From NCBI GenBank assembly GCA_016183775.1, contig JACPDY010000002.1, positions 16,060-80,059 of the forward strand: 64,000 bases of DNA, given 5' to 3'. Positions 500 to 51,000 of this stretch are shown here, in pieces; the first letter of the stretch is position 1, and every line of letters starts with the position of its first letter. Under the pieces are notes generated by a model. The model was not told the DNA's origin, ran no database searches, and worked only from the letters and a program-made list of their open reading frames with translations. The position numbers and the translations under genes were made by a program. Source of the stretch: Bacteroidota bacterium. GTDB taxonomy: Bacteria; Bacteroidota; Bacteroidia; JABDFU01.

Positions 500-811
500 A
501 TGAGACATTTAACCTTAGTTGAACCAGCAAACACCTTTGCCATGAGTAAAGAATTACAAAACATAGTAAATGCAGAGATCAAAAGCATCAATCCGGCAAA
601 AAAGCCGCTGACCATAGAAGTGCTTCGCACCTTTCCGGAATTCAGGAATGTAACTGATGCGGAGGCGGATGAAATTATTTTTTCGCTCCAGATTTTTACC
701 GAGTTATTCCATGAGTTTTATGTAGAACTGGAAAAGATGAAACAGCGCGGAGAAATAAATGACATCATTGAGTATTTAATGAATCAGGAACCTTTAAAAA
801 TAGCAGCATGA
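500..811 (+). CDS. hypothetical small acidic protein, possible recombinase accessory factor
   Basis: ORF of 103 aa; its stop overlaps the recombinase start (ATGA overlap at 808), suggesting translational coupling. Confidence 0.3.
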   Translation: MRHLTLVEPANTFAMSKELQNIVNAEIKSINPAKKPLTIEVLRTFPEFRNVTDAEADEIIFSLQIFTELFHEFYVELEKMKQRGEINDIIEYLMNQEPLKIAA

Positions 812-32440: not shown

Positions 32441-32845
32441 GTAATCAGGCAAAATTTTGCAAATCAAATATTGTGGTATACTCAGGTTCAGATTCACACT
32501 GGTCAGAAAACTTAGGCCCGCCAGCTTTGACGTCACCAATGGCCTGAGAAAAAAGTGTACCTGAAAAAAATATCTGAAAAAAGAGATTTAAACAAAATGC
32601 GCAATGAACAAATCCGTTTTTGAACCTTAATAAATTTTTCACTTTGCCCATTTTTTAAAGGTATTATGATGCGATACGGAATCAAAAACATATATTTACA
32701 AATATAGTTTGTTTGAAAATACAAAAATGCATTTAACATATTAGTTATCAATAACTTAAATAAACATTTAATAATGTTAGTAAATTTAAATTAAGGAAGG
32801 GTTTAAGCCAAATAAATACAGGGTTATTGAATTCTATTTTTTTTT

Positions 32846-34617: not shown

Positions 34618-37404
34618 TCAAGGCACGGCAAGATCAATATTTATGCTGCAGCCGTTTTTATCTTTTATATTTATAGTATAAGCACCCGGGCACAGCTGAT
34701 TTTTATATCTCCTGGCAGATCCATCGGGCCACAAATAAGTGTACGGGCCGGTGCCGCCTGTGGCAGTTACAAGTATCCATTCTTTGCATCCGCATGCTGT
34801 ACAACCAGCGGCACCTTTGGCAAACTGACCAATTAAATTACATACAGTGCAAGGGCTAATAGTTATGTTTATGCTTTTGCTGCTGCTATCGCAGGTGGTT
34901 TTTGCTTTAAGCTGCACAGTGTAATTGCCTGGTGTTGTATATACTATACCTGTTGGGTTTTGGTTAACTGAGGCAGCGGGGGTACCGCCCGGAAAACTCC
35001 AGGTATAGCTTACAACGCTATTATCGCAACTAATGGAAAAATTGCCTGTGAAATTTATTGGTGTGTTGTTGCATAAAGGGTTAGTGCTTGTTGAAGCGAC
35101 GAGTGCGGTTGTTTTATCAAAGCCACAACTGTTTTTGTACAATTGGGCTACAAAGGCATCACTGGTTCCGCCCCCATAAACCGTTTGATGTGCTGCGGGA
35201 GTAACGGGATAGCTACCCCCGACATACCCCGTCATATATACAAAGCAGCCATAAAGGGTTATAACACATTCTTCATCATGAGGTATTGCCGGACTGCCTA
35301 CGTAGGAGGAACAAATGAGCTGTCCAGCCTGACTAAAGTGAGTAACAAAGCCATCTTCTTCACCTCCTAATGTTTGCTGCCACGCGCAGGAACTTACGGG
35401 AAAGTTTAAGCTATAGGTATCTCCCGATACATAAACGTCATTTGTAAGTTGATCCACCGCGACAGACAGCGCATAATCACGATCCGATCCTCCCAGGTAA
35501 GTTGCCCAGATACGACTTGCAGCGCCTCCGGCACTGTCAAATTTCACAAGAAAGGCATCATAAAAAACACTGCCACCAAAAACATTTTGAAATCCACCGG
35601 CAGCGATACCAATAGCGCTGGTGGTCTGGCCAGCCATATACACATTTCCTGCTACATCGGTGGCCACGCTGTTACCCCCATCATAAGCCGTTCCTCCATA
35701 GTAAGTGGCCCAGAGGCGTCCGCCTGAGGTGGAGTTAAATTTCACAAGAAAAGCATCAGTACCACCGCCCAAAACATTTTGAAACCCACCTGAAGCGATG
35801 CCTGCAGTACTGGGAGTATTTCCGGCAAGATATACATTTCCTGATGCATCGGTGGCTACGCTTTTACCCATATCATCACCTGTTCCTCCGTAGTAAGTGC
35901 CCCAGACACGGGATCCAGCCCCGCTAAATTTCACAAGAAAGGCGTCAAAAGTTCCGCCTCCAAAAATATTTTGAAATCCAGTGGAAGCGATACCGGCAGT
36001 GCTGACTGTATATCCGGCCAGATACACATTTCCCAATGCATCCGTGGCTATGCTTTGACCATAATCACCACTCATTCCTCCATAATAAGTAGCCCAAAGG
36101 CGGGTTCCTGACACAGAATTAAATTTTACAAGAAAGGCATCAAAAGTACCCCCAAAAATATTTTGAAATCCGGCGGAGGCTATACCTGTAGTGCTGGTGG
36201 TTTGGCCGGCAAGATAGATATTTCCTAATGCATCGGCAGCTACACTTTTACCCTGATCACTACCAGTCCCTCCATAGTAAGTGGCCCAGAGACGGGCTCC
36301 GGCCCCGTTAAATTTCACAAGAAAAGCATCCGCGCCTCCGCTCTTAACATTCTGAAATCCAGCGGAGGAAATGCTTGCAACGCTGCTGGTCCAACCGCCT
36401 AAATATACATTTCCCGATGCATCGGTTGCTATGCTGGTCCCAGCATCACCACCTGTTCCCCCATAGTATGTTACCCAGGGGTCTACCACTAAAGCATGTT
36501 CCGGGTTCCAGGTTCCAAGTTCAAATGTTACAAGCCCCTCTCCGGCTCTCCCCGGGAGGGAGAGAGTTAAATTGTAGTTAGCTTTTACATCAACAATTTT
36601 CCCGTTTATGTTTTGGTAAACTCTGGGTATTGATTCGGTAAATTCGTTTACACTTGTTTTAATTACCAAACTGCCTTCGCGATTAATGTGTATGCTTTCG
36701 GCTCCGCTCCAGCGAAGTTTAATTTGATTGGGGTTGGCATGGGGTTGTACTACCAGATCATACTTTATCCCCTGCCTGTCCGTCAGGCAAGCATTTTGCT
36801 TGTTACCATAATAGGTTATGTCAATACCATCATAAATATTTTTGTACGTTACTTTGTTGTATTGCTTTACGTTTAATACTCCATTGGGGCAATGCGCGTA
36901 GTAGTAATTGTTGTAGCCCTCTATTTCATCTTCATTAACAAACCTGCAGTTAGCATTGGCTCCGGCAAAATCCATATCAACCCTATTTACTTTAATTTTT
37001 TCATCACGCATTAATTCATCTTGTTTCGTATCCTCATCGGCTTCGGTTAATGTTCCGGCATTAATTAATGCTTCCACCTTTTCGTGAACTTTGTATTGGA
37101 CTTCGCCCATATTGTTGTACACATAACTAATGCCGCTTTTGCGTAAATAAATATCAGCACCCCTGCTTTCACCTTTATATAAAATATCGGGACAAAGATT
37201 ACCATTCATATCAGCTACCTGACCTTTATTAGGGATAAAACATAATCCGTTGCTACCCAATAGTTTCCCGGTTTGGGCATTTCCCAAAGCATATGTTTGT
37301 TGAGCATGGCTATGACTCACCATTAACCCAATCCCAACAAAAAATAAAATATTTTTTATCCCCGACGAGAGGCCAAGTCGTTTATTTTTGCTTTTTGATT
37401 CCAT
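34618..37404 (-). CDS. giant secreted SBBP beta-propeller surface protein with PKD-like domain and conserved Cys-rich C-terminal module (paralog 4)
   Basis: Signal peptide ...ILFFVGIGLMVSHSHAQQ; ENKGQ-type N-terminal domain (PNKGQ...QPHANPNQI); ~9 SBBP repeats (ATYYGGTG.D.G.SVATDA.GN.YLAG.T.ST.GIAS.GFQN..GG..DAFLVKF); PKD-like segment; C-terminus ...CTACGCKEWIL...DLAVP-stop. Confidence 0.75.
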   Translation of the reverse strand: MESKSKNKRLGLSSGIKNILFFVGIGLMVSHSHAQQTYALGNAQTGKLLGSNGLCFIPNKGQVADMNGNLCPDILYKGESRGADIYLRKSGISYVYNNMGEVQYKVHEKVEALINAGTLTEADEDTKQDELMRDEKIKVNRVDMDFAGANANCRFVNEDEIEGYNNYYYAHCPNGVLNVKQYNKVTYKNIYDGIDITYYGNKQNACLTDRQGIKYDLVVQPHANPNQIKLRWSGAESIHINREGSLVIKTSVNEFTESIPRVYQNINGKIVDVKANYNLTLSLPGRAGEGLVTFELGTWNPEHALVVDPWVTYYGGTGGDAGTSIATDASGNVYLGGWTSSVASISSAGFQNVKSGGADAFLVKFNGAGARLWATYYGGTGSDQGKSVAADALGNIYLAGQTTSTTGIASAGFQNIFGGTFDAFLVKFNSVSGTRLWATYYGGMSGDYGQSIATDALGNVYLAGYTVSTAGIASTGFQNIFGGGTFDAFLVKFSGAGSRVWGTYYGGTGDDMGKSVATDASGNVYLAGNTPSTAGIASGGFQNVLGGGTDAFLVKFNSTSGGRLWATYYGGTAYDGGNSVATDVAGNVYMAGQTTSAIGIAAGGFQNVFGGSVFYDAFLVKFDSAGGAASRIWATYLGGSDRDYALSVAVDQLTNDVYVSGDTYSLNFPVSSCAWQQTLGGEEDGFVTHFSQAGQLICSSYVGSPAIPHDEECVITLYGCFVYMTGYVGGSYPVTPAAHQTVYGGGTSDAFVAQLYKNSCGFDKTTALVASTSTNPLCNNTPINFTGNFSISCDNSVVSYTWSFPGGTPAASVNQNPTGIVYTTPGNYTVQLKAKTTCDSSSKSINITISPCTVCNLIGQFAKGAAGCTACGCKEWILVTATGGTGPYTYLWPDGSARRYKNQLCPGAYTINIKDKNGCSINIDLAVP

Positions 37405-37409
37405 AATAC

Positions 37410-39071
37410 TTATGGTGTTGTAAGGTTAACATTTACACTACAGCCATTTTTATCTTTAATGTTTATAGTGTAAGCGCCGGGACACAGATCATTTTTGTAC
37501 CTGTTAGTATATCCATCCGGCCATAAATAAGAATAAGGGCTTGTTCCTCCTGTTGCAGTTATCATTATCCATTGTTTGCAGCCGCAACCGGCACAACTGG
37601 AAGTTCCTTTAGTGAATTGCCCGGCAAGCAAACATCCACATGAACTTACTGTTATATTTTGTTTCAATGTATCAGTGCCACAAGCATAACTGAGCACCAG
37701 CTTAACAGTATACGTTCCGGCACCACTAAATGTATGATTTGCACTATTAACAGTGGAAGTATTGTTTATACCAGAGGCCGGGTCGCCAAAATTCCACAAA
37801 ACAGAACTAATAGCATTTGAAGATCCGGAACAGTTCGTAACATTAACTTGTGGCGCCGTAAAAATTCCATTCAGACAATTGACAGATGCCGTAAATGGTG
37901 GCGGTGGTGGCTTAAAATAATAGTTTACAAAATTCGGGAACCCATTCCTGATTATCCTTCCTGATAAAGCAACTCCATTTACTACAAAATTACATCCAAC
38001 ACCAAGCGTGTTCGGATTATTAATAACTCCTGCCCAGCTTCCTTGCAATAAGGCAACGTATATTTTTTTATCCGGACCTAACTGAAGAGCACCCCTGAAA
38101 GCAGCTGGTGTGTTGATCAGAATTCCGGAATTAGCTACGGCTGCGTTAGAGCCTGCGCAAAGGTTAAACTGGTAAATATGACCGGAGACACAAGCCCCAT
38201 ACATTTTTGTACCATCAGGTGAGAATTCTACACCATATAGAATACTGCCGCCGGCAGATAACGGCAACACGATACCGTTGGAAACCACTCCTGTTGAATT
38301 ATTAAAATCAAATAACTCAAAACTCATACCCTGTACCGCGGAACCAAGCTTTTTTCCGTTCGGAGATGCTTTTAATTGTCCGTGTGTATTCAGAACAGAG
38401 CCATTAACCACAAGACCGGCGTTGCTCACAACCGGCACTGTGTTAACACCTGCAGATGTAACGAGATAAGTACGGAAAGCGTTTGAATTCCAGTCATGTG
38501 TTACCACCCATACATCTTTGTTATTGCAATGTCTTACTCCCGCTATTTTTTCACAAGAGGGCGTGTTAAGCAGAATGTTTTTGTTGGCTGTTACATTACC
38601 AAGCCCCGCGTTCAGGGTCATATCAACTTCTGAATATCTTATCCCTCTTAGTTGTGCTTCATAGTCTGCTGTAAATATATAATAGATTGTGGTACTTCCC
38701 GGTTTTTGGATAATTACAGACGATTGTGTTGAGGAATTATGACCCATCAAACCAAATCCATTGGGCATCTGGATGTGATTTTTGTTCCAGACAAATGTTC
38801 CATCGGTATAAAAGAGCAGGTTTCCAGCCACGTCAGATATGGAGGCACACCCTTCTGATGCAAACATTTGACCATCAGTAACTGCAACGGGAGGCCCAAA
38901 ATTAAAATGCAAACCCGCATTCTGCCCAAAATACCACCAGTTTGCTTCACCCTGTGCATATACTTCATCATTAATTCTCAGAAAAAAAGGAGAAAAGTAA
39001 AGGAAGACAATTGCCAAATGAATTTTAAAAAATTTCTTATGGTAAAGGCATCTTTCTATCTTCATGGTCAT
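37410..39071 (-). CDS. secreted protein with a distinct non-SBBP N-terminal domain, PKD domain and the same conserved Cys-rich C-terminal module
   Basis: PKD motif WNFGDPASG...HTFSGAGTYTVKLV; C-terminus GQFTKGTSSCAGCGCKQWIM...NLTTP-stop; 5 bp downstream of 34618..37404. Confidence 0.65.
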   Translation of the reverse strand: MTMKIERCLYHKKFFKIHLAIVFLYFSPFFLRINDEVYAQGEANWWYFGQNAGLHFNFGPPVAVTDGQMFASEGCASISDVAGNLLFYTDGTFVWNKNHIQMPNGFGLMGHNSSTQSSVIIQKPGSTTIYYIFTADYEAQLRGIRYSEVDMTLNAGLGNVTANKNILLNTPSCEKIAGVRHCNNKDVWVVTHDWNSNAFRTYLVTSAGVNTVPVVSNAGLVVNGSVLNTHGQLKASPNGKKLGSAVQGMSFELFDFNNSTGVVSNGIVLPLSAGGSILYGVEFSPDGTKMYGACVSGHIYQFNLCAGSNAAVANSGILINTPAAFRGALQLGPDKKIYVALLQGSWAGVINNPNTLGVGCNFVVNGVALSGRIIRNGFPNFVNYYFKPPPPPFTASVNCLNGIFTAPQVNVTNCSGSSNAISSVLWNFGDPASGINNTSTVNSANHTFSGAGTYTVKLVLSYACGTDTLKQNITVSSCGCLLAGQFTKGTSSCAGCGCKQWIMITATGGTSPYSYLWPDGYTNRYKNDLCPGAYTINIKDKNGCSVNVNLTTP

Positions 39072-39166
39072 AAATAATTTTCATTTTCATAAAAACTTAT
39101 CGGTGTGCTTTCTTTTACATTGCCATGTTGTATGATCCAGATTGTTACATGTTCCTTATGAAATAA

Positions 39167-40321
39167 CTATTTCAATTTAACATTTTTTATTGTGTGAATA
39201 TGATCCGGCTGTTTTTTTACATGATAAAAATCAAGCACATTTCCCAAATAAGTATCCGCCTTAGGCAACGGAACCCCGACAATATCTAATATACGTCTCG
39301 TTTTTTTATTTTCAAAAACCTGTTTATCTGCTATAAACTCTAAAAACATAGACAGATTTTGTAACTTTTTTTTATTCTTTATGTTAGAAAATATACTAAA
39401 AATGAACAGCAGAAATTTAAAAAGCCTTAATGGAACCAACCTGGTAGTTGGGATAGCGTAGTTCTTGCTTTTGTAAAACTCCTGAACTTTTTTTGCAAGT
39501 TCCTGAATTTCGATGGATTGCCCGGGCCCCGAAGTAAGGTGAAGTATTTTTCCAATCGTGGACGTTTGCTGCGTTGACCAGACAATAACTTTAGCCACAT
39601 AATCAGAAGGCACAGTATCCAGTTTTACATTTTTTATTTGGGGAAGAAAGCCTGCGGTATATTTCCCTGTTAAAAAATCTGTTAAGTGATAAAAAATCTG
39701 GAAATGAATAGTTTTTCCTGTAATAGAATCGCCAACCACCATGCTCGGCCTGTGAATAGTTATCGGCCAGCCTATATTTATTTTTTGTAAAACCAGTTCT
39801 TCCGCTTTTGTTTTTGACGACTCATAAGTATTATGAAAGGCTCTTGGCGTAATAAGCGGCGTTTCAGGGATGCTGCCCGGCATTTTACCGGCAATACCTA
39901 CCGTGCTTATATATTCGATTTTTTCAAGTGTGCCATTTTGTAAACATAAATCAGCCAGCTGCAATAAATTTTCTGTGGAACGTACGCTTGAGCGGTGCGC
40001 CTGCTCCTCCGTCATATTCATTTTAACAGTGGCCGCACAATGAATAATATGTGTTATAGAATGAATGATCTCTTTAAATATAGTTGGATTTATGCCAAAC
40101 CCATCTTCAGTAATATCGCCACGGACCGGAATTAGTGTTGGTACATCTGCATTGAAATCCCAATACGCTAACAGGTCATTGAAACGTTCTGCCAACTTTT
40201 CGTCAGATTCAGCACGCAGCAAAAGATAAACCCTGGATGGATTAAGTTCCATCAGGAAAGGCACTATGCTGCTGCCCAGGGCTCCAGAGGCCCCTGTAAG
40301 AAATATAGTTTTTAGTGACAT
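39167..40321 (-). CDS. NAD(P)-dependent thioester/fatty-acyl reductase (NAD_binding_4, male-sterility-type SDR)
   Basis: Rossmann motif LTGASGALGSSI; catalytic YESSKTKAE; 384-aa length typical of the thioester-reductase family; overlaps the upstream ligase stop. Confidence 0.6.
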   Translation of the reverse strand: MSLKTIFLTGASGALGSSIVPFLMELNPSRVYLLLRAESDEKLAERFNDLLAYWDFNADVPTLIPVRGDITEDGFGINPTIFKEIIHSITHIIHCAATVKMNMTEEQAHRSSVRSTENLLQLADLCLQNGTLEKIEYISTVGIAGKMPGSIPETPLITPRAFHNTYESSKTKAEELVLQKINIGWPITIHRPSMVVGDSITGKTIHFQIFYHLTDFLTGKYTAGFLPQIKNVKLDTVPSDYVAKVIVWSTQQTSTIGKILHLTSGPGQSIEIQELAKKVQEFYKSKNYAIPTTRLVPLRLFKFLLFIFSIFSNIKNKKKLQNLSMFLEFIADKQVFENKKTRRILDIVGVPLPKADTYLGNVLDFYHVKKQPDHIHTIKNVKLK

Positions 40322-42027
40322 AAAAAATAGTATCCCTTTTTGTTTTTAAGTTCTTCGAAAAAGTAATCAAAGCTCCCGCGCGACAGTTCTATTTTTTTGT
40401 ATAACTCCTCGATTTCGCTTTGATAATTTTCCTCAATTGCTTTTCTTCTTATTTTTAAGCCGGCTGTAAGTTCTGCTTTTTCAATGGAAAAGCTATTTTC
40501 TAAAATAATTCCGCCTCTTATTTTTTCGTAAGAGCTGCGGTTTAAATTAGTTTTTTGAATTGAATGAACGGTATCATCTACAATGGTACGAATATTTTTA
40601 TCCTTACTGCTTTCTTTGTTAATTGTAACCAGGCAAGCCAGGCAGGGCCTGTTTGCGCCAACCAGTACTACCTGGTTTAAAAACGGACTGGCCATTAACT
40701 GCTCACCAATTGCTCCGATTGAGATCTTGCGTCCTGTGGACATTTTGATCAGATCATTTTTTCTTCCGGTAAGAAATAAAAAACCTTGTTTATCAAAATA
40801 ACCAAGGTCTCCTGTAGGGAAAAATCCATCATCACTAAAATGGGTTTTTGTGTCTTTGTCAATATACCCATTAAAGAGTCCAGGGCCTTTTATGAAAATT
40901 TCTCCGTCAGCTGCAATTTTTACCTGGTTAGGAAGCAATGGTTTTCCAACACTCCCCAATTTATATTCTTTGGGTCGATTTAATGCAATTGGAAGCACAT
41001 TCTCACTCATCCCGTAAGCTTCTATAAGAGGGATGCCAATGGATTCAAAAAAAGTTAATACCTCTAATCGGCATGGGGCGGAGCCTGTAAGCATATACTG
41101 CATCTTTCCACCGAAAATAGCGGCTATTTTTTTTAACAATAAGGTATAAACAGGTTTGTAAAAAACATTGCTTTTTTTAATCCTTAAAAGCCGGTTAAGC
41201 AAAAGCCTGATTGAGAACGGTTGGGAATTCATTTTCTGTTTTACCGAGGCGTACACCTTTTCATACAATAATGGTACACCAATTAATACGGTAGGTTGAA
41301 TTGTTGGTAAAACATTAATTATGTCCTTTGGATTAGTAACAAAGTAAATGGAAGCATTCGTGATAAGCGCACAAAGATTAACCATTCGTTGAAAAAGACT
41401 TGCCAATGGCAGCCAGCAAATTGTTCGTCCATTTTCCTGGGCAAATGCGATAGAAAGCGTTTGAGCCGCCTGTATAAGTTGCCTGTGTGTGTATGCAATT
41501 CCCTTTTGTTTGCCTGTACTCCCGGAGGTGAAAATGATGGTAGCCACTGTATCTGCTGATACAATGGGCCAAACAGTTCTTTGGGTAACAGGCAAATCCA
41601 CCCAGGTATTTTGATCTATATTGTAAAAAACATCTTTTGATATATTAAATTGTTCCTGAAGCGTTACAGCTGTTTTTTTGTCCTCAATAATAACTAATTG
41701 AGGGGATACCTGTTTAATTATTTCATTCATGGAATCGGGCCGGGCATGCGTTTCAATACCGACAATGGTTGCGCCAATCAGTAAACAGGCTTTTTCAAAT
41801 AAATCCCATTGAATGGAAGTCGGTAAAATAATTACTACCCGATCTTCAGTTTTAATGTTTAACGCTAATAAAAGTTCCGCCGCGCTTTTTATTTTTTCAT
41901 AATAGGCAGTCCAGTTAAGATCCGACCAAACCCCTACTTCCGCGTTTTTATACATTGCAACTTTCTTTGCTGGAAAGCGCTGCACCTGTTCAGTTAAAAA
42001 CTCCGGAATAGTTAATATGCTTTCCAT
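40312..42027 (-). CDS. acyl-AMP/acyl-CoA ligase (AMP-dependent synthetase family)
   Basis: AMP-binding motif IIFTSGSTGKQKGIAY and GDLGYFDKQGFLFLTGRKNDLIK (A8-like). Start chosen at MESILTIPEF (42027) because that Met and 21 bp upstream are what was duplicated at 44371..44562; the ORF extends to 42111. Confidence 0.7.
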   Translation of the reverse strand: MESILTIPEFLTEQVQRFPAKKVAMYKNAEVGVWSDLNWTAYYEKIKSAAELLLALNIKTEDRVVIILPTSIQWDLFEKACLLIGATIVGIETHARPDSMNEIIKQVSPQLVIIEDKKTAVTLQEQFNISKDVFYNIDQNTWVDLPVTQRTVWPIVSADTVATIIFTSGSTGKQKGIAYTHRQLIQAAQTLSIAFAQENGRTICWLPLASLFQRMVNLCALITNASIYFVTNPKDIINVLPTIQPTVLIGVPLLYEKVYASVKQKMNSQPFSIRLLLNRLLRIKKSNVFYKPVYTLLLKKIAAIFGGKMQYMLTGSAPCRLEVLTFFESIGIPLIEAYGMSENVLPIALNRPKEYKLGSVGKPLLPNQVKIAADGEIFIKGPGLFNGYIDKDTKTHFSDDGFFPTGDLGYFDKQGFLFLTGRKNDLIKMSTGRKISIGAIGEQLMASPFLNQVVLVGANRPCLACLVTINKESSKDKNIRTIVDDTVHSIQKTNLNRSSYEKIRGGIILENSFSIEKAELTAGLKIRRKAIEENYQSEIEELYKKIELSRGSFDYFFEELKNKKGYYFLCH

Positions 42028-42048
42028 GATGTTGAAATTTTTATTTAG
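41857..42048. repeat. 192-bp direct repeat, copy A (5' end plus RBS of the acyl-AMP ligase gene)
   Basis: About 93% identical to 44371..44562. Confidence 0.8.
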
Positions 42049-42079
42049 AATTAGTTTCCTGTTGTTTTTTATTAAAAAT

Positions 42080-42751
42080 TTATTTGTTGATGATAATTTT
42101 TTTTGCCTCAAGTATGTATTCGGGACAGATAGATAGCGGGATTAATTGAATAAAATAAATTCCGGTTTGTTGGTTGCTTAAATCAAGCCCTGTTTTTTCT
42201 CCGATAATTTTAGTTTTAAAAATAATTTGTCCCAGAACATCCGTAATAATCACATTACTATTTTGTTCTGCTCCCTCAATAATGAATGTTCCTGTGCCTG
42301 GGGTGGGGTAAATAGTAAATTCTGTAATTCTATTGCAACTAACCGCCACTAAATTAAAATAGTTATACTGCCCGTTAAAGTCGGTTTGTTTTAAACGGTA
42401 GTACGAAGTTCCATTCAATGGTTCATTATGGGCAAAAGTATAAGACATGGTTTGGCTGCTGTTGCCAGTACCATCAATGATGCCAATAATTTCAAAGTTA
42501 ACACCATCTATAGTTCGTTCAATGGTAAAATAATCGTTATTTATTTCTGATGCCGTTGCCCACATTAAATTTACTTTTCGGTTATTGCATTTCGCTTCAA
42601 ACGAAAGTAACCCAATTGGTAAAGGCACTTCACTACCCACAGAGCCAACACAACTAAACGAAAAGCCATCATCGTTTCCTACCGAATAAATTTGGGAAAA
42701 GGTATTTGAAAAACATCCCATTAATACAAAAAACAATAGATTTACTCTCAT
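42080..42751 (-). CDS. small secreted protein with fn3-like domain and T9SS type-A C-terminal sorting domain
   Basis: Signal peptide MRVNLLFFVLMGCFSNTFSQ (start 42751); C-terminus ...TEFTIYPTPGTGTFIIE...ITDVLGQII...GIYFIQL = Por_Secre_tail; internal LPIGLLSFEAK...NNDYFTIERT...YYRLKQTD domain shared with 51139..53045. Confidence 0.65.
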   Translation of the reverse strand: MRVNLLFFVLMGCFSNTFSQIYSVGNDDGFSFSCVGSVGSEVPLPIGLLSFEAKCNNRKVNLMWATASEINNDYFTIERTIDGVNFEIIGIIDGTGNSSQTMSYTFAHNEPLNGTSYYRLKQTDFNGQYNYFNLVAVSCNRITEFTIYPTPGTGTFIIEGAEQNSNVIITDVLGQIIFKTKIIGEKTGLDLSNQQTGIYFIQLIPLSICPEYILEAKKIIINK

Positions 42752-42789
42752 GATTTTAATTGGTTGATAAATAATAAAAACAACCCCGG

Positions 42790-44541
42790 CTAAGGCGCCA
42801 CACGAACACCACGACAACCGAAAACGTTGGAACGACTGAGGTTTGTGAGAGCTCCGAAGTAGCGGTCGGACACACGCAGGTAACTTGTAGCAGTGCTATA
42901 ATTACCGCCACGCATGTCAGTGCCTATGGCATCGGTACCTGGCCAGTTACTTGCATCGGCATTGCCCGATGCGCTTATTATACCATTGCCATGGATGCCT
43001 GTAAAAGCCCTGCCTGTGGCATTGCCAACCGTTACACAGCGTTTCCACAAGTTGCCGCTGAGTTCCATAATGCCGTAATAACTTGCTCCTACACCTACTC
43101 GTGTATTTACTCCTTGCCCGAAATTGCCTACCCGCATAGGTCCTTGTACACTTGCATGAAAGCCATAATCACAGTTGGCAGCTCCATTACTGGAAGTTTC
43201 GTTGGTTAAGCCGGCATTGCTAATGCCTGTTGCTTGTGTAACAGATGCGCTGCCCCATGCGTATTCATTTGCAACAGTGGCAAGTGTGCCTCTGGCGGCT
43301 TTTTCGTATTCCAATTCGGTCATAGGGCGCAGAGCTGTCCAGTCCAAATAAGCGGCAAGGTCTGCCCAACTTAAATAATTGCAGGCAATGCTTTGCCCGT
43401 CATTAGTTTCATCGCCAGTGCCATCACCATCAAGATCGCAATAAAAGGTAATAGGATCAGATGTATGTATTGTTGCATCACAACGAATTCCATTACGATA
43501 TTGCAAAGTCGAATTATTGGACATAACATACCTGTTTGTAACAGCGGTAGTTCCGGGGGCAAGGCCAGTAGCTGTCCTGGTATTTTGTTGGTCGCGTGTT
43601 AATTTGTTTAAAAATGCCACATATTGTGCTTGTGTAATTTCGTATTTCATACAGTAAAAGGCGTTATAACCCTTGGGGAATGCTGCAGGGATAGGTCCTG
43701 TTTGGTCGCCAGAGGAAGTAGATGGATTTGGGTAGTAGAGGTTGCCTGCGGTAGTACCTACGGTAATGGCTCCCTCGCTAGTTATTTGGTAAGGATTGGT
43801 AGTAGTGGGGTAAGTATAAAATGCTCCGCTTTCTGTACCGCCACTACCTACATAAAAACTTGCTTGCGGCACATATACCATTTCTATGGCAAATACGCAT
43901 AGTTCTACTTTATCGACGTCTATTAATCCATCTACACCGTAATTCCAACGAAGTTGTGTTCCGGTATAACTTACACTACCCTGTGCCATATCGGCATTAC
44001 GATATATAAAAATGCCATACGCACCATTGGCACCATTGTCGTTACTGGTGGTTATATTGCTGTTGGGGGGGGGGGTATGTCCATCTCCGCTGCCTGTGCC
44101 ATCCGCCCAATTTAAGGTAGCGTGGTTCCAGGTGGTTTCTCCTTCTAAACGGTATTTTACAAATACCCAGGCGGCATCCCAATTAGAGGTACCTGAAGAG
44201 GTGCGCCAAGAGTTGTCCCAACTGATATCAAACTGCACGTGGGTATAATCCGAAATGGTATTTTGACCGGTTAAGCGTACATTAGCCACATTGATATTGT
44301 TGGAAAAGCAATATTGAGGCACCGAAACTATAAGTATTACAGTTATACCAAACCAAAATGATAATAAAATGTTTAACGATAATAAAAGCTCCGCCGCGCT
44401 TTTTAGTTTTTCATAATAGGCAGTCCAATTAAGATCCCACCAAACCGCTACTTCCGCGTTTTTATACATCGCAACTTTCTTTGCTGGAAAGCGCTGCACC
44501 TGTTCAGTTAAAAACTCCGGAATAGTTAATATGCTTTCCAT
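42790..44541 (-). CDS. FGE-sulfatase (SUMF1/GldJ/GldK/PorK-like) domain protein with chimeric N-terminus copied from the acyl-AMP ligase
   Basis: FGE-domain motifs EMVYVPQASFYVGS, YCMKYEITQAQYVAFL, SWADLAAYLDWTALRPMTELEYEKAARG, GNLWKRCV, RGGNYSTATSYLRVSDR; first 57 aa (MESILTIPEF...AELLLSLNI) are ~95% identical to the ligase N-terminus because of the 192-bp duplication. Confidence 0.65.
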   Translation of the reverse strand: MESILTIPEFLTEQVQRFPAKKVAMYKNAEVAVWWDLNWTAYYEKLKSAAELLLSLNILLSFWFGITVILIVSVPQYCFSNNINVANVRLTGQNTISDYTHVQFDISWDNSWRTSSGTSNWDAAWVFVKYRLEGETTWNHATLNWADGTGSGDGHTPPPNSNITTSNDNGANGAYGIFIYRNADMAQGSVSYTGTQLRWNYGVDGLIDVDKVELCVFAIEMVYVPQASFYVGSGGTESGAFYTYPTTTNPYQITSEGAITVGTTAGNLYYPNPSTSSGDQTGPIPAAFPKGYNAFYCMKYEITQAQYVAFLNKLTRDQQNTRTATGLAPGTTAVTNRYVMSNNSTLQYRNGIRCDATIHTSDPITFYCDLDGDGTGDETNDGQSIACNYLSWADLAAYLDWTALRPMTELEYEKAARGTLATVANEYAWGSASVTQATGISNAGLTNETSSNGAANCDYGFHASVQGPMRVGNFGQGVNTRVGVGASYYGIMELSGNLWKRCVTVGNATGRAFTGIHGNGIISASGNADASNWPGTDAIGTDMRGGNYSTATSYLRVSDRYFGALTNLSRSNVFGCRGVRVAP

Positions 44542-44562
44542 GATGTTAGGATTTTTATTTAG
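44371..44562. repeat. 192-bp direct repeat, copy B (provides start codon and RBS for the FGE-like gene)
   Basis: About 93% identical to 41857..42048. Confidence 0.8.
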
Positions 44563-45661
44563 TACTAACCATACTGGTGTGACTATTGACTACAGAAACA
44601 GGTGGATCATAAGCCCCTTTTGGCAAAGTGATCTTTAGTTGATCAGGTTTAAGGGTAAGCCACTCCATAGATTTAGTGACAAACTGTCCCATAAAAATTT
44701 TATTTTTTATCATAAAATCAACAAACGGCGCCATAAACTTCCAATAAGTAAGGCTTGCTTTTCCTTCACGTATAAGCGCTGAAAATTCAGGGATATAGGG
44801 ATTATACCCGAAATGCGCGAGGTCTGAATACATCAGGAGCCATTGAATCGGATAGTTGCTGAAAATCGGACTCGCGTGTTTTGAATTTTTAACAAGGCCG
44901 AGCTCAACAACCTTTTTCATTACTTCCTCCTGATTATAGTTCCATGCATGGAAGGGCGCAATGTATCTTGGAAATATGGTACCCTCTGGATAGCGATGGG
45001 GGTTCCAAAAGCGGGAAAGTTCCTGCTCAGTAAATTCTCCGCATGCTTTTAAATGTGGAGGTGTCCAATCTGTATCAGCGATAAGCTCTTTGGAAAATTC
45101 ATAGATCATACGTTCAGGTTCAGGTTGGCCCGGAGAATAGCCTGCAAAAACCAAAGGAATTTTTTTATCCGTTGCTAATTGAAGCGCATCACCTTCAAAG
45201 AGTGGAGCATAAACATACGACAGTGAATATACGGCCCCCCTTTGTTCCTGGTGCCGCAAAATGTAACTGAACAGCTTTCTGTAGAATGCGTCGCTAGGAC
45301 GGTAAACCAGATGATCGATTTCAAGTTTAGCTATTGTTCGTTTTATATTATCCCATGCAATAGCAGGTATATTTATATCCGTTGTGAAGGCTAAAATTTT
45401 CAGCCCATACTCCACCTTTAAACGATAAAGCAGGTAAAGACTGTCTTTCCCTCCGCTAAGACAAACAACAGCATCATACTCCGCTTTACCTTTGCTGTTT
45501 CGGATGGTTTCTTCCAGATCATTTTCAAATTGAGCCCTGTTTTTATCCCAGGGAGCCAGGTGTGATTGCTTAGGGGCAAAACAATATTCACACACATTAT
45601 CAGCGTTTATGTTGGACCCTGGAACGGATTCCGGCAGCAGACATTTTTTACAGTGGCGCAT
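44555..45661 (-). CDS. PP-loop ATP-pyrophosphatase family protein with N-terminal zinc ribbon (N-acetyl sugar amidotransferase/WbuX-like)
   Basis: CKKCLLPESVPG...CEYC zinc ribbon, then PP-loop VVCLSGGKDSLYLL; ~370 aa as in that family. Confidence 0.5.
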   Translation of the reverse strand: MRHCKKCLLPESVPGSNINADNVCEYCFAPKQSHLAPWDKNRAQFENDLEETIRNSKGKAEYDAVVCLSGGKDSLYLLYRLKVEYGLKILAFTTDINIPAIAWDNIKRTIAKLEIDHLVYRPSDAFYRKLFSYILRHQEQRGAVYSLSYVYAPLFEGDALQLATDKKIPLVFAGYSPGQPEPERMIYEFSKELIADTDWTPPHLKACGEFTEQELSRFWNPHRYPEGTIFPRYIAPFHAWNYNQEEVMKKVVELGLVKNSKHASPIFSNYPIQWLLMYSDLAHFGYNPYIPEFSALIREGKASLTYWKFMAPFVDFMIKNKIFMGQFVTKSMEWLTLKPDQLKITLPKGAYDPPVSVVNSHTSMVSTK

Positions 45662-45702
45662 AAAATTGTTTCGTTAAGATTGTGAGATGAATTGATTTCG
45701 CA

Positions 45703-46323
45703 TTACTCATAATACCCTTTAATACCAAATCGCCGGGCCATTTTTTTCACCTCTAACATCATCGGCGCGATGTAATTTCCTATATGCTCATTGTATTTTA
45801 TTTCGCCTACCAGTATCGCTCCCAAGCGTTCCATTGTTGGCTGCAGTTTATAATTTACCGGAAAAAACGCGTAATCTACCTTGCGATCATTACCTACTTT
45901 AAGCGCTTCTTTTATCAGGGAATATAAAAGTTTTACGCTGCAATTTGGCTTATTTATGGCCAACATACCTACACCCGCAAATCTGCCCTGAAGCTTGGAA
46001 CGTAATTTTTTATACTCTTCATGATACTGATCGCAGGGCAATTCCTGTCCGGGATTTTCAATGATTGTTGTACGTATTGTTCCGATGTATTTTTCACCAT
46101 TACTTGCCAGCAAGTTCACTGTTCCTTTATGTGTATCGAACTTGTCGTTTAACTTTTCATCCGAAAAATTTGCCTTATTAAATTTTTTATCATCCTCAAC
46201 AAATACTTTATACCGTAACCGATAAACTACATCTAACTGATGTGTTGTTACCGCCTCCTGAACTCTGTAGTTTGGCACATTAGGGTTTGCGGCTATTAGT
46301 GCTTCTTGTTCTTCTGTTTTCAT
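45703..46323 (-). CDS. GNAT-fold acyltransferase, N-acyl amino acid synthase / autoinducer-synthase-like
   Basis: YRLRYKVFVEDD motif typical of LuxI/FeeM/exosortase-associated NAS families; ~200 aa; first gene of the co-directional operon. Confidence 0.4.
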   Translation of the reverse strand: MKTEEQEALIAANPNVPNYRVQEAVTTHQLDVVYRLRYKVFVEDDKKFNKANFSDEKLNDKFDTHKGTVNLLASNGEKYIGTIRTTIIENPGQELPCDQYHEEYKKLRSKLQGRFAGVGMLAINKPNCSVKLLYSLIKEALKVGNDRKVDYAFFPVNYKLQPTMERLGAILVGEIKYNEHIGNYIAPMMLEVKKMARRFGIKGYYE

Positions 46324-46513
46324 GTGTCTGATGATTAGGTTTCTGTCTGTTTGCTTTATTTAAAAGTATTTCAATAGAATCCGGATTCATAAACATATAT
46401 TTGTATTAATTTTGTTAGTAAAAGCATAATAATTTTTCAATTGACTGATTATCAAATATTTAATAATATATTAATGCTGTTAGTAAAGAGGTAAAAATTT
46501 AAATATTACACCT

Positions 46514-48070
46514 GTGAAAACCTACTCTTCCGAATTGCACGATCTTGTAAAATCTCTTAGCACGCAGGAGAAAAAGCGTATCAGGAAAGAAATGTCCCTT
46601 ACTAACAAGAATAAAAAAATAGTACTGCTATATGATATTATTGATAAACAAAATTTTTTTGATGAAGCTTTAATTCAAAAAAAATTAGGAAACCCCAAAT
46701 GGTATCCGGGTCTCAAAAAATACTTGCTCGAATACCTCACGGATAAAATATATTGCGGTAATTCCGATAAGAAAAGCAAAACCTATTTACTTAAATTAAT
46801 AACCATCGCAGAACAGTTTCACACAAAAGGATTAATTAAAGCGACCAAAAAAAAATTGATCCAGGCATTGGATCTATGCAAAGAAAATAGTTGGATAGAA
46901 TATGCGCCCATTATTAATTCTAAACTGGATAATATTATCGGAGAAAAAGCAGAGCAAAGGAAAAGTTACACTTTTTATACGGAGTCTTACCGGGCGTTAA
47001 ATCAGGCGTATTTAGAAAAAAAATATTCCATTTTATTCCGTTGCTTGGAGCATTCGGATAAGACAATACAGGCACCGGAATTTATGGCCGGCTTAAGCAT
47101 CGATGAATGTTTATCCGACGAAAAGCACCTGACAACTTTTCATCAGAAATTACACTATTATCAATTTTTAAGTGCATATTATAGACACATCGAACTAAAT
47201 TATTCTCAAAGTTATTTTTACGCTAAAAAAAGCATGGAAGTAATTCTTAAAAAAAATAAGGAAGAGGAAAATATGGAACCCTTCTCTCAGACACAACAAA
47301 ATGCCAGGGAAAGAAGTAATATGGTACAAATCTATAACCTGATCGCAGGTGCAATAAACGCAAATTTTCTTGATGATCTTTATACCCTCTTTAAATCTTA
47401 CGTTTTACTTCGAAGAAAGTTTAATATACGAAAGGGCCATATTCTTCATAAACTATACAATGAACTTTATCAATCTCTTTGTTTCCTTATTTCAGCTGTA
47501 AATATTACAAGGAGAGGGGTTGAGTCCCCGGATTTTCATTCCCACCTTCATCAATTTTATCTGATCGAAAAAAAATTACCTTACAACATATTAGTTGTTT
47601 GCAATGAAATGATATCCTTTTATTTTTTTATGAAAAGAGACTGGAATAATTGCACTTCCACCATTAACAAAATATTAAATGACAATGAGTTATACAAAAT
47701 TTATCCTGAAACATATGCCAATATGCTGCTTCTCCGGTTATTTGTAAATTATGAAACGGATGATCTGGATGTTCTAGATTATAACTTAAAAAGAACAGAG
47801 CGATATTTCGAAAAACATTATTCCGCACTGGGGTATGAAAAAATAGTCATAGCATTCTTTAATGAAATCGTCAATGATTTTTCAGGCAGAATAAAAACGA
47901 TGCAAAAATACATGGACAAAATAAATGAACTACTTTTAAATGATAGAAATTTTTCTTTTACCTATTTAACTGAAAAAATATTTATTGATTTTAAATGCTG
48001 GCTGGATTCAAAAATCACCAACAGGATGTTCACAGAGATTTTAAAAGAAAAAAAAAGAAATAAGAATTGA
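46514..48070 (+). CDS. ~517-aa family protein B (paralog of 33055..34611)
   Basis: MKTYSSELHDLVKSLSTQEKKRIRKEMS...; collinear similarity over the full length; stop is 8 bp from the stop of the convergent giant gene 48079..51138. Confidence 0.6.
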   Translation: MKTYSSELHDLVKSLSTQEKKRIRKEMSLTNKNKKIVLLYDIIDKQNFFDEALIQKKLGNPKWYPGLKKYLLEYLTDKIYCGNSDKKSKTYLLKLITIAEQFHTKGLIKATKKKLIQALDLCKENSWIEYAPIINSKLDNIIGEKAEQRKSYTFYTESYRALNQAYLEKKYSILFRCLEHSDKTIQAPEFMAGLSIDECLSDEKHLTTFHQKLHYYQFLSAYYRHIELNYSQSYFYAKKSMEVILKKNKEEENMEPFSQTQQNARERSNMVQIYNLIAGAINANFLDDLYTLFKSYVLLRRKFNIRKGHILHKLYNELYQSLCFLISAVNITRRGVESPDFHSHLHQFYLIEKKLPYNILVVCNEMISFYFFMKRDWNNCTSTINKILNDNELYKIYPETYANMLLLRLFVNYETDDLDVLDYNLKRTERYFEKHYSALGYEKIVIAFFNEIVNDFSGRIKTMQKYMDKINELLLNDRNFSFTYLTEKIFIDFKCWLDSKITNRMFTEILKEKKRNKN

Positions 48071-48078
48071 AAATTGCA

Positions 48079-51000
48079 TCAGGGTACTGCAAGATCAATA
48101 TTTATGTTACAGCCGGTTTTATCTTTAATATTTATAGTATAAGCACCCGGGCACAGCTGATTTTTGTATCTCCTGGCAGATCCATCCGGCCATAAATAAG
48201 TGTATGGGCTTGTGCCGCCTGCGGCAGTTACCATTATCCACTCTTTACAGCCGCAGGTGGTGCAACTGGCGGTGCCTTTGGTAAATTGGCCTGTTAAAGC
48301 AGGTAGTGAAATTATTGCAGCGGTAGAACTTGCGGTGCAGCCTTTTGAATCAGTTACGGTTACTGTATAGTTGCCCGTAGTAAGCCCAGTGGCTGTTTGC
48401 GCGGTTTGTCCGTTATTCCAGAAATAGGTATAAGCTGCAGTACCATTTGTGGCTGTTATAGTGGCGCTACCCAATCCAGAACAGTTGGCATTTTGATTAC
48501 TTATTAAGTTTAAACTTCCGGCACTTCCTGTGAGACTATAATAAATGGTATCTCTGTTGCATGTCGCATCAGTTACTTCTACCCAATAAGGGCCAGGACA
48601 CAGGTTTGTTATAGTATTTGCAGCACTTGAACTGTTGATCGTATTATTACCATTACTCCATATGTAATTTAATGGCAGAGCTCCACAATTTGTTACGGTT
48701 ACTGTTGCGGTGCCATCACAGGCACAGGACGATATATTAACCTGCGTAGATGTATAAGTAGGTAAAACGGGGGTAAATTTCAAAATGAAAGAATCGTCAA
48801 GTCCATTCGGTGTGTTATCGAAATACGCCGATCCTCCGGGATTAAACAATGGTAACGCTGTACCTGAAGTATAATTCAAAAATTCCCCAGCCAGAAATAA
48901 ATTTCGATCATTATCAATTGTAAGAGAATAACGCAAATCTTCACCATTGCTTCCGATGTATGATGCCCATAATAGCTGCCCATTACTTGTAAATTTTGTA
49001 ATGAATATATCGAATGGAGGAGGAGACCCTGTTCCTGCTCCAAAAATGCCATCAAAATAAGTTCCGCAACCAGGATTTAGTGTAGTAATGTCTGTAGATC
49101 TGGTGTCAAATGAAACATATAAATTACCACAATTATCCGTTTGAATATTGTCGAATGTTTCATAAAAGGCTCGGATTTCATCGTTGCTCCCTCCATAATA
49201 GGTGGCCCATTGACGAATGCCGGCATTATCGAATTTTAAAATAAAAACATCTTGTGTACCACCTAATGCACCATCAAAATAAGTTCCTGCATTTTGAGTT
49301 GGAAAATCCGAAGATTTTGTAACTCCCATTAAAAACATATTACCGGATACATCTATGGTAATGGAATGACCTTCATCACTATTACTTCCTCCATAGAAAG
49401 TCGCCCATTCCCTAATTCCGGCATTTGAAAACCTAAGAATAAATGCATCTCCAAATCCTCCTCCTCCAAATACAGCATCCAAATAGGCGCCAAGGAATGG
49501 TCCTGTTCCGGCCTGGATAGGAAAATCGGTTGAACTTGTAATTCCCGTTATATAAATATTTCCTGAAGCATTGGTTTTTATTGAATAGCCATTGTCAGCA
49601 CCACTTCCTCCATAATAGGTAGCCCAATCGCAGTTACCGGTAGCTGAAAAACGAAGAACAAATCCATCCTGTGCTCCTCCTAATGCCGAATTAAAATAAG
49701 CGCCTCCCCATGACTGTACAGGAAAATCAATTGATCGGGTGCTCCCGGTAATATATATGTTCCCTAAAACATCACTATCTATTGAGTATCCATTATCAAA
49801 ATTATTTCCACCGTATAAAGTGGCCCAATCCCTGGCTCCTGTATTGGAAAACCTAAGAATAAACACATCACTTCCTGATGAGCCTAAAACATTATCAAAA
49901 TAAGCAGAACCCCATGCCTGGGCAGGAAAATCGAATGAAGCGCTATATCCGGCAACATAGATATTTCCTGAAATATCAATTTCTATAGATATTGCATAAT
50001 CAGAGTTACTCCCTCCGTAATAAGTTGCCCAATTTAAAATTCCCGAATTCGAAAAGTTGACAATAAAAGCATCAGTTGGCGATCCTGATACTCCTTGGAA
50101 ATATGCACTACCCGATGATTGTGTTGGAAAGTTTGTTGAAGTCGTGTACCCAGCAACATATATGTTTCCACTTGCATCACAATCCATACTCATTATACCA
50201 TCTGCTGAGTTTCCACCAATAAGTGTACCCCAGGTTAATTGCGGATCAATTATTAATGTAGAAAGATGATTTAATGATGAAGTAATAAAGGAAAAGGTAA
50301 TAGTAGTTTGGTAATAATCATCGCACTGTTTGGTACTTGTTAATTGAAACTTGCTTGCTACTTCCTGATCGGTTTCCTGGATATAACTATAAGGGGCATT
50401 TTCAGTTAGTGTACCTCTATCGGTTTTAAGTTTTATTTCACCATGGTTGTTTAATTTCAATTGGTTTAGTGATGAGTAAACAAGTTGTATCTGGTTAGGA
50501 TCGGCCCCGGGATGAACAATAAAATCGTACTTAAATCCTTTATCACTGGAATTATATAATACCCAGTCTATTCCCGGATAAATTTTCCGGATGACAATTT
50601 TGTCAAATTGCTTTACTCCGTAAATACCTTCGGGACAATGCCCGTAGAAATAATTATAGTCGCTTGTAGAAGGATTTTCTTTACAGACATTTTCCTTTTT
50701 TATACTTGCGTCTTTCAGTTCCATATCCACCCGCTCCCATTTGAAAATGATATTTTCATCACTCTCCGTAAACATCTTTACTTTGTTTTCCCTTTCAGTT
50801 TGTTCGTCTTCCTTTTCTTCTGCCTGAAGAAAAGTATAGGTGATTCCCCTTTCGGTTATATACATATCCAGACCAGGTACTTCTGCTTTAAACAATACAA
50901 AAGGCACAGGATTCCCTTCCATGTCTGTCATTTGGCCTTTGTTTTCCAAAAATTTAACCGATTGATTCTGCATCCAATGCCGGATTTGTTCTTTAGAATC

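Follow-up and report, generated by a model that had tools for sequence, protein, structure and literature searches.

We examined a window of 64,000 nucleotides (nt) of DNA from a Bacteroidota bacterium (GenBank assembly GCA_016183775.1, contig JACPDY010000002.1, positions 16,060 to 80,059 of the forward strand), and focused on six closely spaced genes at positions 39,167 to 46,323. An earlier interpretation made from the DNA letters (hereafter the sequence-only reading) had regarded these six genes as a single operon for the activation, reduction and amidation of an acyl compound, with a possible role in modifying or attaching the surface proteins encoded on either side. All six are found in the open reading frame (ORF) listing of the window on the minus strand, and the motifs that had drawn attention to them (YRLRYKVFVED, SGGKDS and TSGSTGKQKG) are present in the ORF translations. 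In that listing, the ORFs of the small type IX secretion system (T9SS) cargo gene and of the ligase span 42080-42817 and 40312-42111, and the corresponding ATG codons are at 42751 and 42027. In the order in which they would be transcribed, the genes are:

45703..46323, minus strand: FeeM-type GNAT, N-acyl amino acid synthase-like, 206 amino acids (aa), first gene of the cassette (PF21926)
44555..45661, minus strand: PP-loop ATP pyrophosphatase resembling N-acetyl sugar amidotransferases (NASATs), with an N-terminal Zn ribbon, 368 aa (motifs and fold)
42790..44541, minus strand: secreted protein with a formylglycine-generating enzyme (FGE)/SUMF1 domain, 583 aa, with ligase-derived residues 1-58 followed by native sequence from residue 59 (PF03781)
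42080..42751, minus strand: small T9SS type A cargo protein, 223 aa, partner of the FGE protein (PF18962/TIGR04183)
40312..42027, minus strand: AMP-forming acid-activating ligase, ACSL/FadD11-like, 571 aa (PF00501 and PF23562)
39167..40321, minus strand: stand-alone NAD(P)-dependent thioester/acyl reductase, 384 aa (PF07993)

The intergenic gaps down this run are 41, 13, 38 and 52 nt, and the ligase and reductase genes then overlap by 10 nt (40312-40321, ATGTCACTAA). We consider it reasonably probable that the region consists of two units of different origin, namely a four-gene cassette and a two-gene secreted-protein module that was inserted into it later. To a similar degree, we favor the view that the cassette is the Bacteroidota copy of an uncharacterised unit, the core of which (PP-loop enzyme, ligase and reductase; hereafter the trio) is mostly proteobacterial and occurs in at least ~80 species.

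The evidence for two units came from a repeat search of the window, which revealed a 200-nt direct repeat, the copies of which are 94% identical and lie 2,514 nt apart (41854-42053 and 44368-44567). The repeat covers the very end of the PP-loop gene with its stop codon, a short spacer and the first 58 codons of the ligase gene. The features that it defines are:

44368..44567, minus strand: repeat copy A, comprising the PP-loop gene end, spacer and 58 ligase codons, in frame with the FGE gene
41854..42053, minus strand: repeat copy B, comprising the native start region and first 58 codons of the intact ligase
42054..44367, minus strand: inserted segment of 2,314 nt, bracketed by the repeat and carrying the FGE gene (without its native start) and the small T9SS cargo gene

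The PP-loop gene passes without interruption into copy A, the ligase codons of which lead on in frame to the hydrophobic signal segment of the FGE protein; codons 1-58 of the FGE ORF (44368-44541) duplicate codons 1-58 of the ligase. Copy B is continuous with the remainder of the ligase, and is collinear with the ligase of the closest relative among the loci that we fetched (L083). The two copies differ at 12 of 200 positions, of which three are synonymous, four are non-synonymous and five are non-coding. Because the FGE ORF starts with duplicated ligase codons inside the repeat, the six genes are not one ancestral unit, and the proposed single operon gives way to a composite.

To place this arrangement among its relatives, we drew on PP-loop protein homologues from 188 species genomes (one genome per species), and analysed the best 80 of the 188 plus two others, giving 82 loci. 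The distance from the PP-loop stop codon to the ligase start is 2,527 nt in the window versus a median of 25 nt, and a maximum of 436 nt, in 78 other loci. At L083, which encodes a PP-loop protein 82% identical to that of the window, a spacer of 26 nt separates the two genes, and no insert is present. None of the 82 loci contains a homologue of the FGE protein, the small T9SS protein, the C-terminal-module proteins that surround the cassette (see below), or the 518-aa protein encoded next to it. Given that the insert is bracketed by the repeat and absent from these relatives, the ancestral unit comprises the genes for the GNAT, PP-loop enzyme, ligase and reductase. The insertion would have brought with it a 200-nt duplication of the 5' end of the ligase gene, such that the ligase was kept intact and the FGE ORF was fused to 58 ligase codons. 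A YhgA-like transposase gene (PF04754) is located between the ligase and reductase genes in two proteobacterial loci (L064 12960-13874; L081 8078-8926); insertions thus affect the trio in other genomes too, albeit at a place other than the PP-loop/ligase junction.

The inserted pair has a distribution of its own. Throughout this work, profile matches were judged against Pfam gathering thresholds or NCBIfam curated cut-offs. The FGE protein matches PF03781 with 42.9 bits and belongs to a large Bacteroidota family (6,599 matches), the members of which are 490-560 aa long, have signal-peptidase-I-type N-termini and are paired with a small Por_Secre_tail gene. In an alignment of the family, the hydrophobic signal segment of the window protein starts right after the repeat boundary; it ends in ...VPQYCFS/NN, where the homologues have signal-peptidase I sites of the A-N-N type, and the N-terminal alignment shows no lipobox. 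The sequence-only reading had likened this protein to GldJ, GldK and PorK. We rejected that identity on the NCBIfam scores (16.4 bits for GldK, TIGR03525, with a cut-off of 350, and no match to GldJ) and on the absent lipobox. The small protein carries a T9SS type A tail at residues 147-203 of 223 (TIGR04183, 39.1 bits versus 23; PF18962, 36.2 bits versus 27). Homologues of the FGE protein, 61-72% identical, occur in three unrelated contexts (L090, L107 and L108/L109), each followed by a small Por_Secre_tail gene, that of L090 encoding a protein 48% identical to the small T9SS protein of the window; none of these contexts has a PP-loop or reductase gene. Judged from these sequences, the FGE and small T9SS genes form an independent two-gene module that was evidently inserted later between the PP-loop and ligase genes.

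It is exceedingly improbable, in our view, that the insertion was created during assembly by joining a PP-loop/ligase locus to a second locus with a fragment of the ligase 5' end. Such an error would be in keeping with a contig that comes from a short-read metagenome-assembled genome (MAG), and with the probable presence of a paralogous GNAT/FGE locus in the same genome. However, it requires two independent chimeric joins, it has to produce a copy A that is in frame with the FGE ORF as well as a copy B that restores a full-length ligase, and the GC content at third codon positions (GC3) is uniform across the region. The repeat copies are also unlikely to have collapsed or been mis-joined, because they differ at 12 of 200 positions. 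We therefore regard the anatomy of the locus, with its gene content, repeat and insertion, as solid. Recent horizontal transfer of the cassette was also considered, and found to be unsupported, as the GC3 of the cassette genes (0.34-0.38) is in line with that of their neighbours. A scan for sigma-70 promoters and terminators gave results at background level; such a scan is ill-suited to Bacteroidota.

The distribution of the trio is equally solid. PP-loop, ligase and reductase genes are found in that order on one strand in 71-78 of the 82 loci, which belong mostly to Nitrosomonas, Accumulibacter, Thiobacillus and Methylomonas. Homologues of the PP-loop protein that are 60-69% identical occur in Methylomonas, Nitrosomonas, Accumulibacter, Thiobacillus, Propionivibrio, Desulfobacterales, Verrucomicrobia and Omnitrophota, where every one of them carries the annotation 'hypothetical' and lacks a Pfam domain. 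Clustering of a library at 50% identity reduces these orthologues to essentially one full-length representative, which stands apart from ~2,500 more distant PP-loop relatives. Neither an NCBIfam or Pfam model nor a publication on the PP-loop family or the trio turned up in profile and literature searches, and the trio genes are not mentioned in Haft 2006 (PMC1569441) or in the Aquincola floc paper. At one locus (L088 6403-8576), a pyridoxal phosphate (PLP)-dependent PALP enzyme and a 917-aa protein of unknown family replace the ligase and reductase.

The PP-loop protein itself has no match in a Pfam profile search, and scores 100.6 bits against TIGR03573 (WbuX), for which the cut-off is 203.2; it was rejected as a member of that family. 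NASATs carry two signatures, a PP-loop SGGXDS motif and a tetracysteine CXXCXn[GN]XCXXC motif, and are thought to adenylate the N-acetyl carbonyl, after which ammonia displaces the oxygen (PMC10607449). Both signatures are present in the window protein, as SGGKDS at residues 69-74 and as the tetracysteine C4-K-K-C7...N-V-C24-E-Y-C27, and their positions are invariant in an alignment of 24 sequences of the family, in which ~120 columns are invariant altogether. An AlphaFold model of the protein (pLDDT 84) was compared with solved structures using Foldseek, and the best PDB match was LpNASAT (8wex; E 1e-12, TM 0.57-0.60 over 364-375 columns). Sequence identity to 8wex is 18-19%, with profile similarity confined to residues 14-133. 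The next matches, TtuA and NcsA, have TM values of only 0.33-0.35. These fold matches prompted us to consider sulfur transfer of the TtuA/NcsA/LarE kind, which was rejected because the only invariant cysteines of the PP-loop protein are the four of the Zn ribbon.

Could the PP-loop enzyme be a true sugar amidotransferase that converts an N-acetyl sugar to an acetamidino sugar, so that the cassette decorates a polysaccharide and is not a lipid pathway? The only named relatives of the protein are indeed WbuX, PseA and the NASATs (TIGR03573, 100.6 bits; 8wex, TM 0.6), and in Methylomonas the trio directly follows a gene for the XrtA-type priming glycosyltransferase EpsB_2. Nevertheless, the protein fails to reach the family cut-off and has only 19% identity to 8wex. 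NASAT/WbuX loci typically have a sugar-nucleotide context and a HisH/HisF-like ammonia donor of the WbuY/WbuZ type. No such donor was found among the six ORFs, the scanned flanking ORFs or the recurrent neighbour families of the 82 loci, and the window has no sugar-pathway genes nearby. We therefore think sugar decoration unlikely.

The first gene of the cassette is recurrent in this position as well. The GNAT protein passes the FeeM profile PF21926 with 60.5 bits against a cut-off of 27 (profile positions 2-157 of 158). Its score with TIGR03694 is 35.9 bits, over the N-terminal half only and versus a cut-off of 111.95, and membership of that family was consequently rejected; a hidden Markov model built from TIGR03694-type proteins of XrtA loci gave 40 bits. 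Close relatives are few, six having been found at 61-82% identity with the window's own protein excluded. In 11 loci, the PP-loop gene is immediately preceded, on its own strand, by a FeeM-type or TIGR03694-type GNAT gene, and a Verrucomicrobia locus (L002) has a GNAT gene within the trio cluster. The gene order of the window is therefore a recurrent one. On two other contigs, the gene behind a close relative of the window GNAT encodes a ThiF-family adenylating enzyme (L106 835-1596; L110 1002-1901) in place of a PP-loop enzyme, and these ThiF proteins are 41-46% identical to ThiF proteins encoded beside the trio in XrtA loci of Methylomonas and Thiobacillus (L008 14311-15258; L015 7266-8150; L041 14758-15753). 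The GNAT-ThiF pair seems to be an alternative to the GNAT-PP-loop pair. The finding of two different adenylating enzymes behind the same GNAT suggests that the product of the GNAT is the target of adenylation.

The ligase matches PF00501 (189.7 bits) and PF23562 (56.2 bits). Its best NCBIfam match is FadD11 (NF038343; 209.6 bits versus a cut-off of 950), and TIGR03098 is absent from the best 25 of its 104 matches. With the L083 ligase it shares 64% identity, and its scores with the ligases of the trio lie at 250-420 bits. In a PDB profile search, the closest solved relative was the adenylation domain of a carboxylic acid reductase (CAR; 5msc, E 2.5e-26). The reductase exceeds the cut-off for PF07993 (157.1 bits versus 20.1), falls below that for TIGR01746 (128.4 versus 213.35), contains the TGxxGxxG and YxxxK motifs as LTGASGALG and YESSK, and has the terminal reductase domain of MxaA as its closest solved relative (4u7w, E 1e-25). 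Of the profiles that the sequence-only reading had named for these proteins, PF03781 and PF07993 were thus confirmed, the scores for TIGR03694 (35.9 bits) and TIGR03573 (100.6 bits) were too low, and TIGR03098 lay outside the best 25 matches of the ligase.

In 45 of 70 loci, which represent several phyla, the ligase gene reaches exactly 10 nt into the reductase gene, an unusually fixed junction that presumably serves translational coupling. Since the genes overlap in most loci, a ligase-reductase complex is suggested. The earlier proposal that the two enzymes are a carboxylate-reducing pair has stood up well, as it fits the similarity to the CAR adenylation domain and MxaA reductase domain and the conserved 10-nt overlap. 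With the CAR model NF041592, the ligase and reductase score 141.3 and 37.4 bits, respectively, which is far below the cut-off of 1300, and neither contains a PP-binding domain; the pair is therefore a split CAR at most.

Among the genes that recur beside the trio are those for FAD_binding_4 proteins, a GMC oxidase, a GT1 glycosyltransferase, a methyltransferase, MacB/DevA-like ABC components, LolA-like proteins, DUF1302 and MMPL, an assortment that appears to have a lipid-making and lipid-exporting flavour. The frequency of the FAD_binding_4, GMC oxidase, GT1 and DevA-like exporter genes might also be expected if the ligase and reductase simply made a fatty aldehyde or alcohol from free fatty acids (as for a wax, ether-lipid or alkyl-glycoside), with the adjacency of the GNAT being incidental. 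The ACSL/FadD11-type C-terminal domain of the ligase, the affinity of the reductase to the PF07993 'male sterility'/FAR-like proteins (PRK07201, 142.6 bits), and the many loci that have no GNAT within 10 kb agree with this idea. Yet it leaves the strictly co-conserved PP-loop enzyme without a substrate, and fails to explain why a same-strand upstream GNAT recurs with two GNAT subfamilies in three phyla. We regard it as improbable.

In Proteobacteria, the trio is located in a well-defined neighbourhood. Flanking ORFs were clustered and representatives were scanned, and the XrtA markers that scored above the NCBIfam cut-offs beside the trio are PrsR (641 bits), PrsT (631), PrsK (667), a chain-length determinant (572), a tyrosine autokinase (278), an exporter (234), EpsB_2 (566), TIGR03694 (240) and PepA (126), PEP-CTERM proteins of the PepA/THxN type being included. 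At least one XrtA/PEP-CTERM marker or PEP-CTERM tail is present in 43 of 54 loci of at least 12 kb. A genetic link between N-acyl amino acid synthases and PEP-CTERM/exosortase systems had been recognised before (Craig et al. 2011, as cited in PMC4897644 and PMC11072679). The physiological role of the PEP-CTERM-associated synthases is described as unclear (PMC4897644), and in a Methylomonas synthase mutant a polysaccharide band of the wild type is not formed (PMC11072679). The sequence-only reading had drawn a parallel between these genes and the accessory genes of exosortase systems. That parallel is supported for the trio as shared ancestry, given that 43 of the 54 long loci carry XrtA/PEP-CTERM markers, but it does not extend to the families that had been named, TIGR03694 and TIGR03573.

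Concerning the chemistry of the cassette, what follows is conjecture, in which we infer the substrates, order of steps, product and cellular role from the gene content and by analogy with NASATs and CARs. The GNAT would N-acylate an amino acid, using acyl-acyl carrier protein or acyl-CoA as donor. The PP-loop enzyme may then O-adenylate an amide or carboxyl carbonyl and exchange the oxygen for nitrogen, giving an amidine or an amide, as in the NASAT reaction. The putatively translationally coupled ligase and reductase, which would work like a CAR without its carrier domain, could activate a carboxylate, belonging either to the N-acyl amino acid or to a fatty acid, with an aldehyde or an alcohol as the reduced product. 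The pathway might accordingly run in the order of N-acylation, exchange of carbonyl oxygen for nitrogen, and reduction of the carboxylate, and its product would be a tailored lipid, derived from an N-acyl amino acid or a fatty acid and probably directed to the envelope. It is a long shot that the trio, together with the N-acyl amino acid synthase, makes a previously undescribed nitrogen-modified lipid that serves as the missing envelope acceptor or anchor for C-terminally sorted proteins (PEP-CTERM proteins in Proteobacteria and the proteins with a 72-aa module here). One possible form of such an anchor lipid is an N-acyl amino aldehyde that bears an amidine and cyclises to a 2-alkyl-imidazoline or imidazole head group.

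Several observations weigh against the picture of a lipid-making cassette with a late insertion. The GNAT of the window is a divergent FeeM member that falls below the TIGR03694 cut-off, and the closest PP-loop relative (L083) has no GNAT gene adjoining its PP-loop gene. The operon has no carrier protein, so that both CoA and AMP chemistry are conceivable, and the substrates and product of the trio as given above are guesses. In L088, a PP-loop relative that is 69% identical is accompanied by a PLP enzyme instead of a ligase. The ~30 window ORFs that were scanned include no exosortase-system family and no exopolysaccharide (EPS) genes, and the window has no PEP-CTERM tail. The sequence is a MAG contig, and the junctions of the insertion are known from its assembly alone. 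Finally, a GNAT paralogue (MBI2271008, 70%) is encoded four genes away from an FGE paralogue (MBI2271004, 67%) on a contig of 127,634 bp, the accession numbering of which makes it probable that it shares a MAG with the window genes MBI2268814-16. The proximity of these paralogues hints that the association with the FGE gene may not be a pure accident.

The cassette of the window is flanked by genes for proteins with a common C-terminal module. The features that bear on this array are:

23119-26586, 26614-29592, 29621-32539, 34618-37404, 37410-39071, 48079-51138, 54844-57864 and 63031-63981, all minus strand: C-module genes with the shared 72-aa module
33055-34611, 46514-48070 and 53230-54780, all plus strand: BT2802-like paralogues, 516-518 aa (weak match to BT_2802_fam)
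46324..46513, no strand: divergent intergenic region of 190 nt between the cassette and the gene for the BT2802-like 518-aa protein, with two copies of a 32-nt motif (46404-46435 and 46469-46500)

The eight C-module genes share a Cys-rich C-terminal module of 72 aa (GQFxKGTxxCxxCGCKxWIM...NLSxP) with a mean column identity of 83%, and most encode proteins of the DUF7948, SBBP and PKD/SprB type. The module has no transmembrane tail and no match to T9SS type A or type B signals, and its second half is SprB-repeat-like. The three BT2802-like paralogues have no Pfam family and reach 62 bits against BT_2802_fam (cut-off 550). Each is convergent with a minus-strand C-module gene, the ends being 7-64 nt apart. 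The core of the motif in the divergent region, TATTAATNNTGTTAGTAAA, has six matches in the window versus 0.93 expected and recurs upstream of these paralogues, with exact copies at 46404 and 46469 and near-matches at 32766 (upstream of the paralogue at 33055) and 53204. The BT2802-like proteins may be regulators of the array. A secreted-type protein of 583 aa (51294-53045, minus strand) has no family match, and has a C-terminal 'NNDYFxIERS...YYRLKQxDxDG' domain in common with the small T9SS protein; it ends before any sorting tail, and may be truncated.

This setting is what had suggested that all six genes form one system for acylating, lipid-anchoring or exporting the C-module proteins, in which the FGE protein is a GldJ/K/PorK-like component of the T9SS. 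Consistent with that proposal, the GNAT gene opens an unbroken series of eight minus-strand genes (34618-46323) that ends in two C-module genes, which follow gaps of 95 and 5 nt, and the 190-nt divergent region is common to the cassette and a BT2802-like gene of the kind that accompanies the module genes. Moreover, the orthologous trio of Proteobacteria accompanies another C-terminal sorting system. On the other hand, the sequence-only reading had itself remarked that an operon that is widespread without C-module genes would count against a dedicated link, and we found the cassette in ~80 fetched loci that have no C-module gene, and no FGE or small T9SS homologue. The closest relative, L083, sits among housekeeping genes. 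A metagenome scan for the module gave one full-length match (L091, 57%, on a 1.7-kb contig), the rest being SprB repeats, and says little beyond the rarity of the module; none of the loci with a C-module or SprB repeats carries the cassette. Added to this are the lack of a transmembrane tail or T9SS type A/B match in the module, the GldK score (16.4 bits versus 350) and the status of the FGE pair as a secondary insertion. We consequently consider a six-gene system very unlikely. A functional link between the cassette and the C-module proteins rests on co-directional adjacency in one window and is unsupported, and a search of 251 stop-to-stop segments of at least 60 aa in the window revealed no PEP-CTERM-like tail. 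Given that no PEP-CTERM tail was found in the window and no exosortase or EPS genes in the ORFs scanned, the role of the cassette here may differ from that in Proteobacteria.

Two further features of the window are worth recording. A UvrD/PcrA-type helicase appears to be split into two overlapping ORFs (58025-59539 and 59536-60435, plus strand) with an acidic low-complexity stretch at the junction, which could reflect a frameshift, a pseudogene or an assembly error. A large serine recombinase with Resolvase, Recombinase and Zn_ribbon_recom domains is encoded near the left margin of the window (808-2499, plus strand), and may indicate a mobile element in the vicinity.

Two questions have stood since 2006-2011, namely to which acceptor PEP-CTERM proteins are joined by exosortases, and for what reason these systems are accompanied by N-acyl amino acid synthases. 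The conserved three-enzyme core in XrtA loci is a concrete and testable biosynthetic unit whose hosts are culturable and genetically tractable. For the window, the picture is corrected in two respects, in that the FGE and T9SS genes are a later insertion and the tie to the surface array is one of adjacency alone.

Four known systems offer themselves for comparison. With GldJ, GldK and PorK, the FGE protein of the window shares the FGE-sulfatase fold domain (PF03781), its nature as a secreted Bacteroidota protein and an adjoining T9SS cargo gene, but it belongs to a separate large family and has no lipobox. Like CARs (adenylation, peptidyl carrier protein (PCP) and reductase domains; A-PCP-R) and the terminal reductases of nonribosomal peptide and polyketide synthases (PKS), the cassette combines a ligase nearest to a CAR adenylation domain with a reductase nearest to the R domains of MxaA and PKSs; unlike CARs, these are separate polypeptides, and the operon has neither a PCP domain nor a phosphopantetheinyl transferase gene. 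The PP-loop protein resembles the NASATs (WbuX, WbpG and PseA; LpNASAT 8wex) in its SGGKDS and CXXC...[GN]XCXXC zinc motifs and its overall fold (TM 0.6), and by analogy the two likely share a chemistry in which ATP-dependent activation of a carbonyl oxygen is followed by the attack of nitrogen, whereas its partners are a CAR-like pair and a GNAT rather than sugar-nucleotide enzymes or HisH/HisF-like subunits. In gene neighbourhood, there is a parallel with the accessory genes of XrtA/PEP-CTERM systems, where counterparts of the trio (PP-loop proteins 60-69% identical) lie among PrsK/R/T genes, EPS genes, PEP-CTERM proteins and TIGR03694/FeeM acyltransferases, and a GNAT of the same superfamily heads the operon in the window as it does in 11 proteobacterial loci. 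In contrast to those systems, the window has no exosortase, PEP-CTERM tail or EPS genes, and its ligase is FadD11/ACSL-like and not demonstrably TIGR03098; its cassette is thus a rare Bacteroidota variant that stands outside a recognisable exosortase context and is interrupted by a repeat-flanked insertion.

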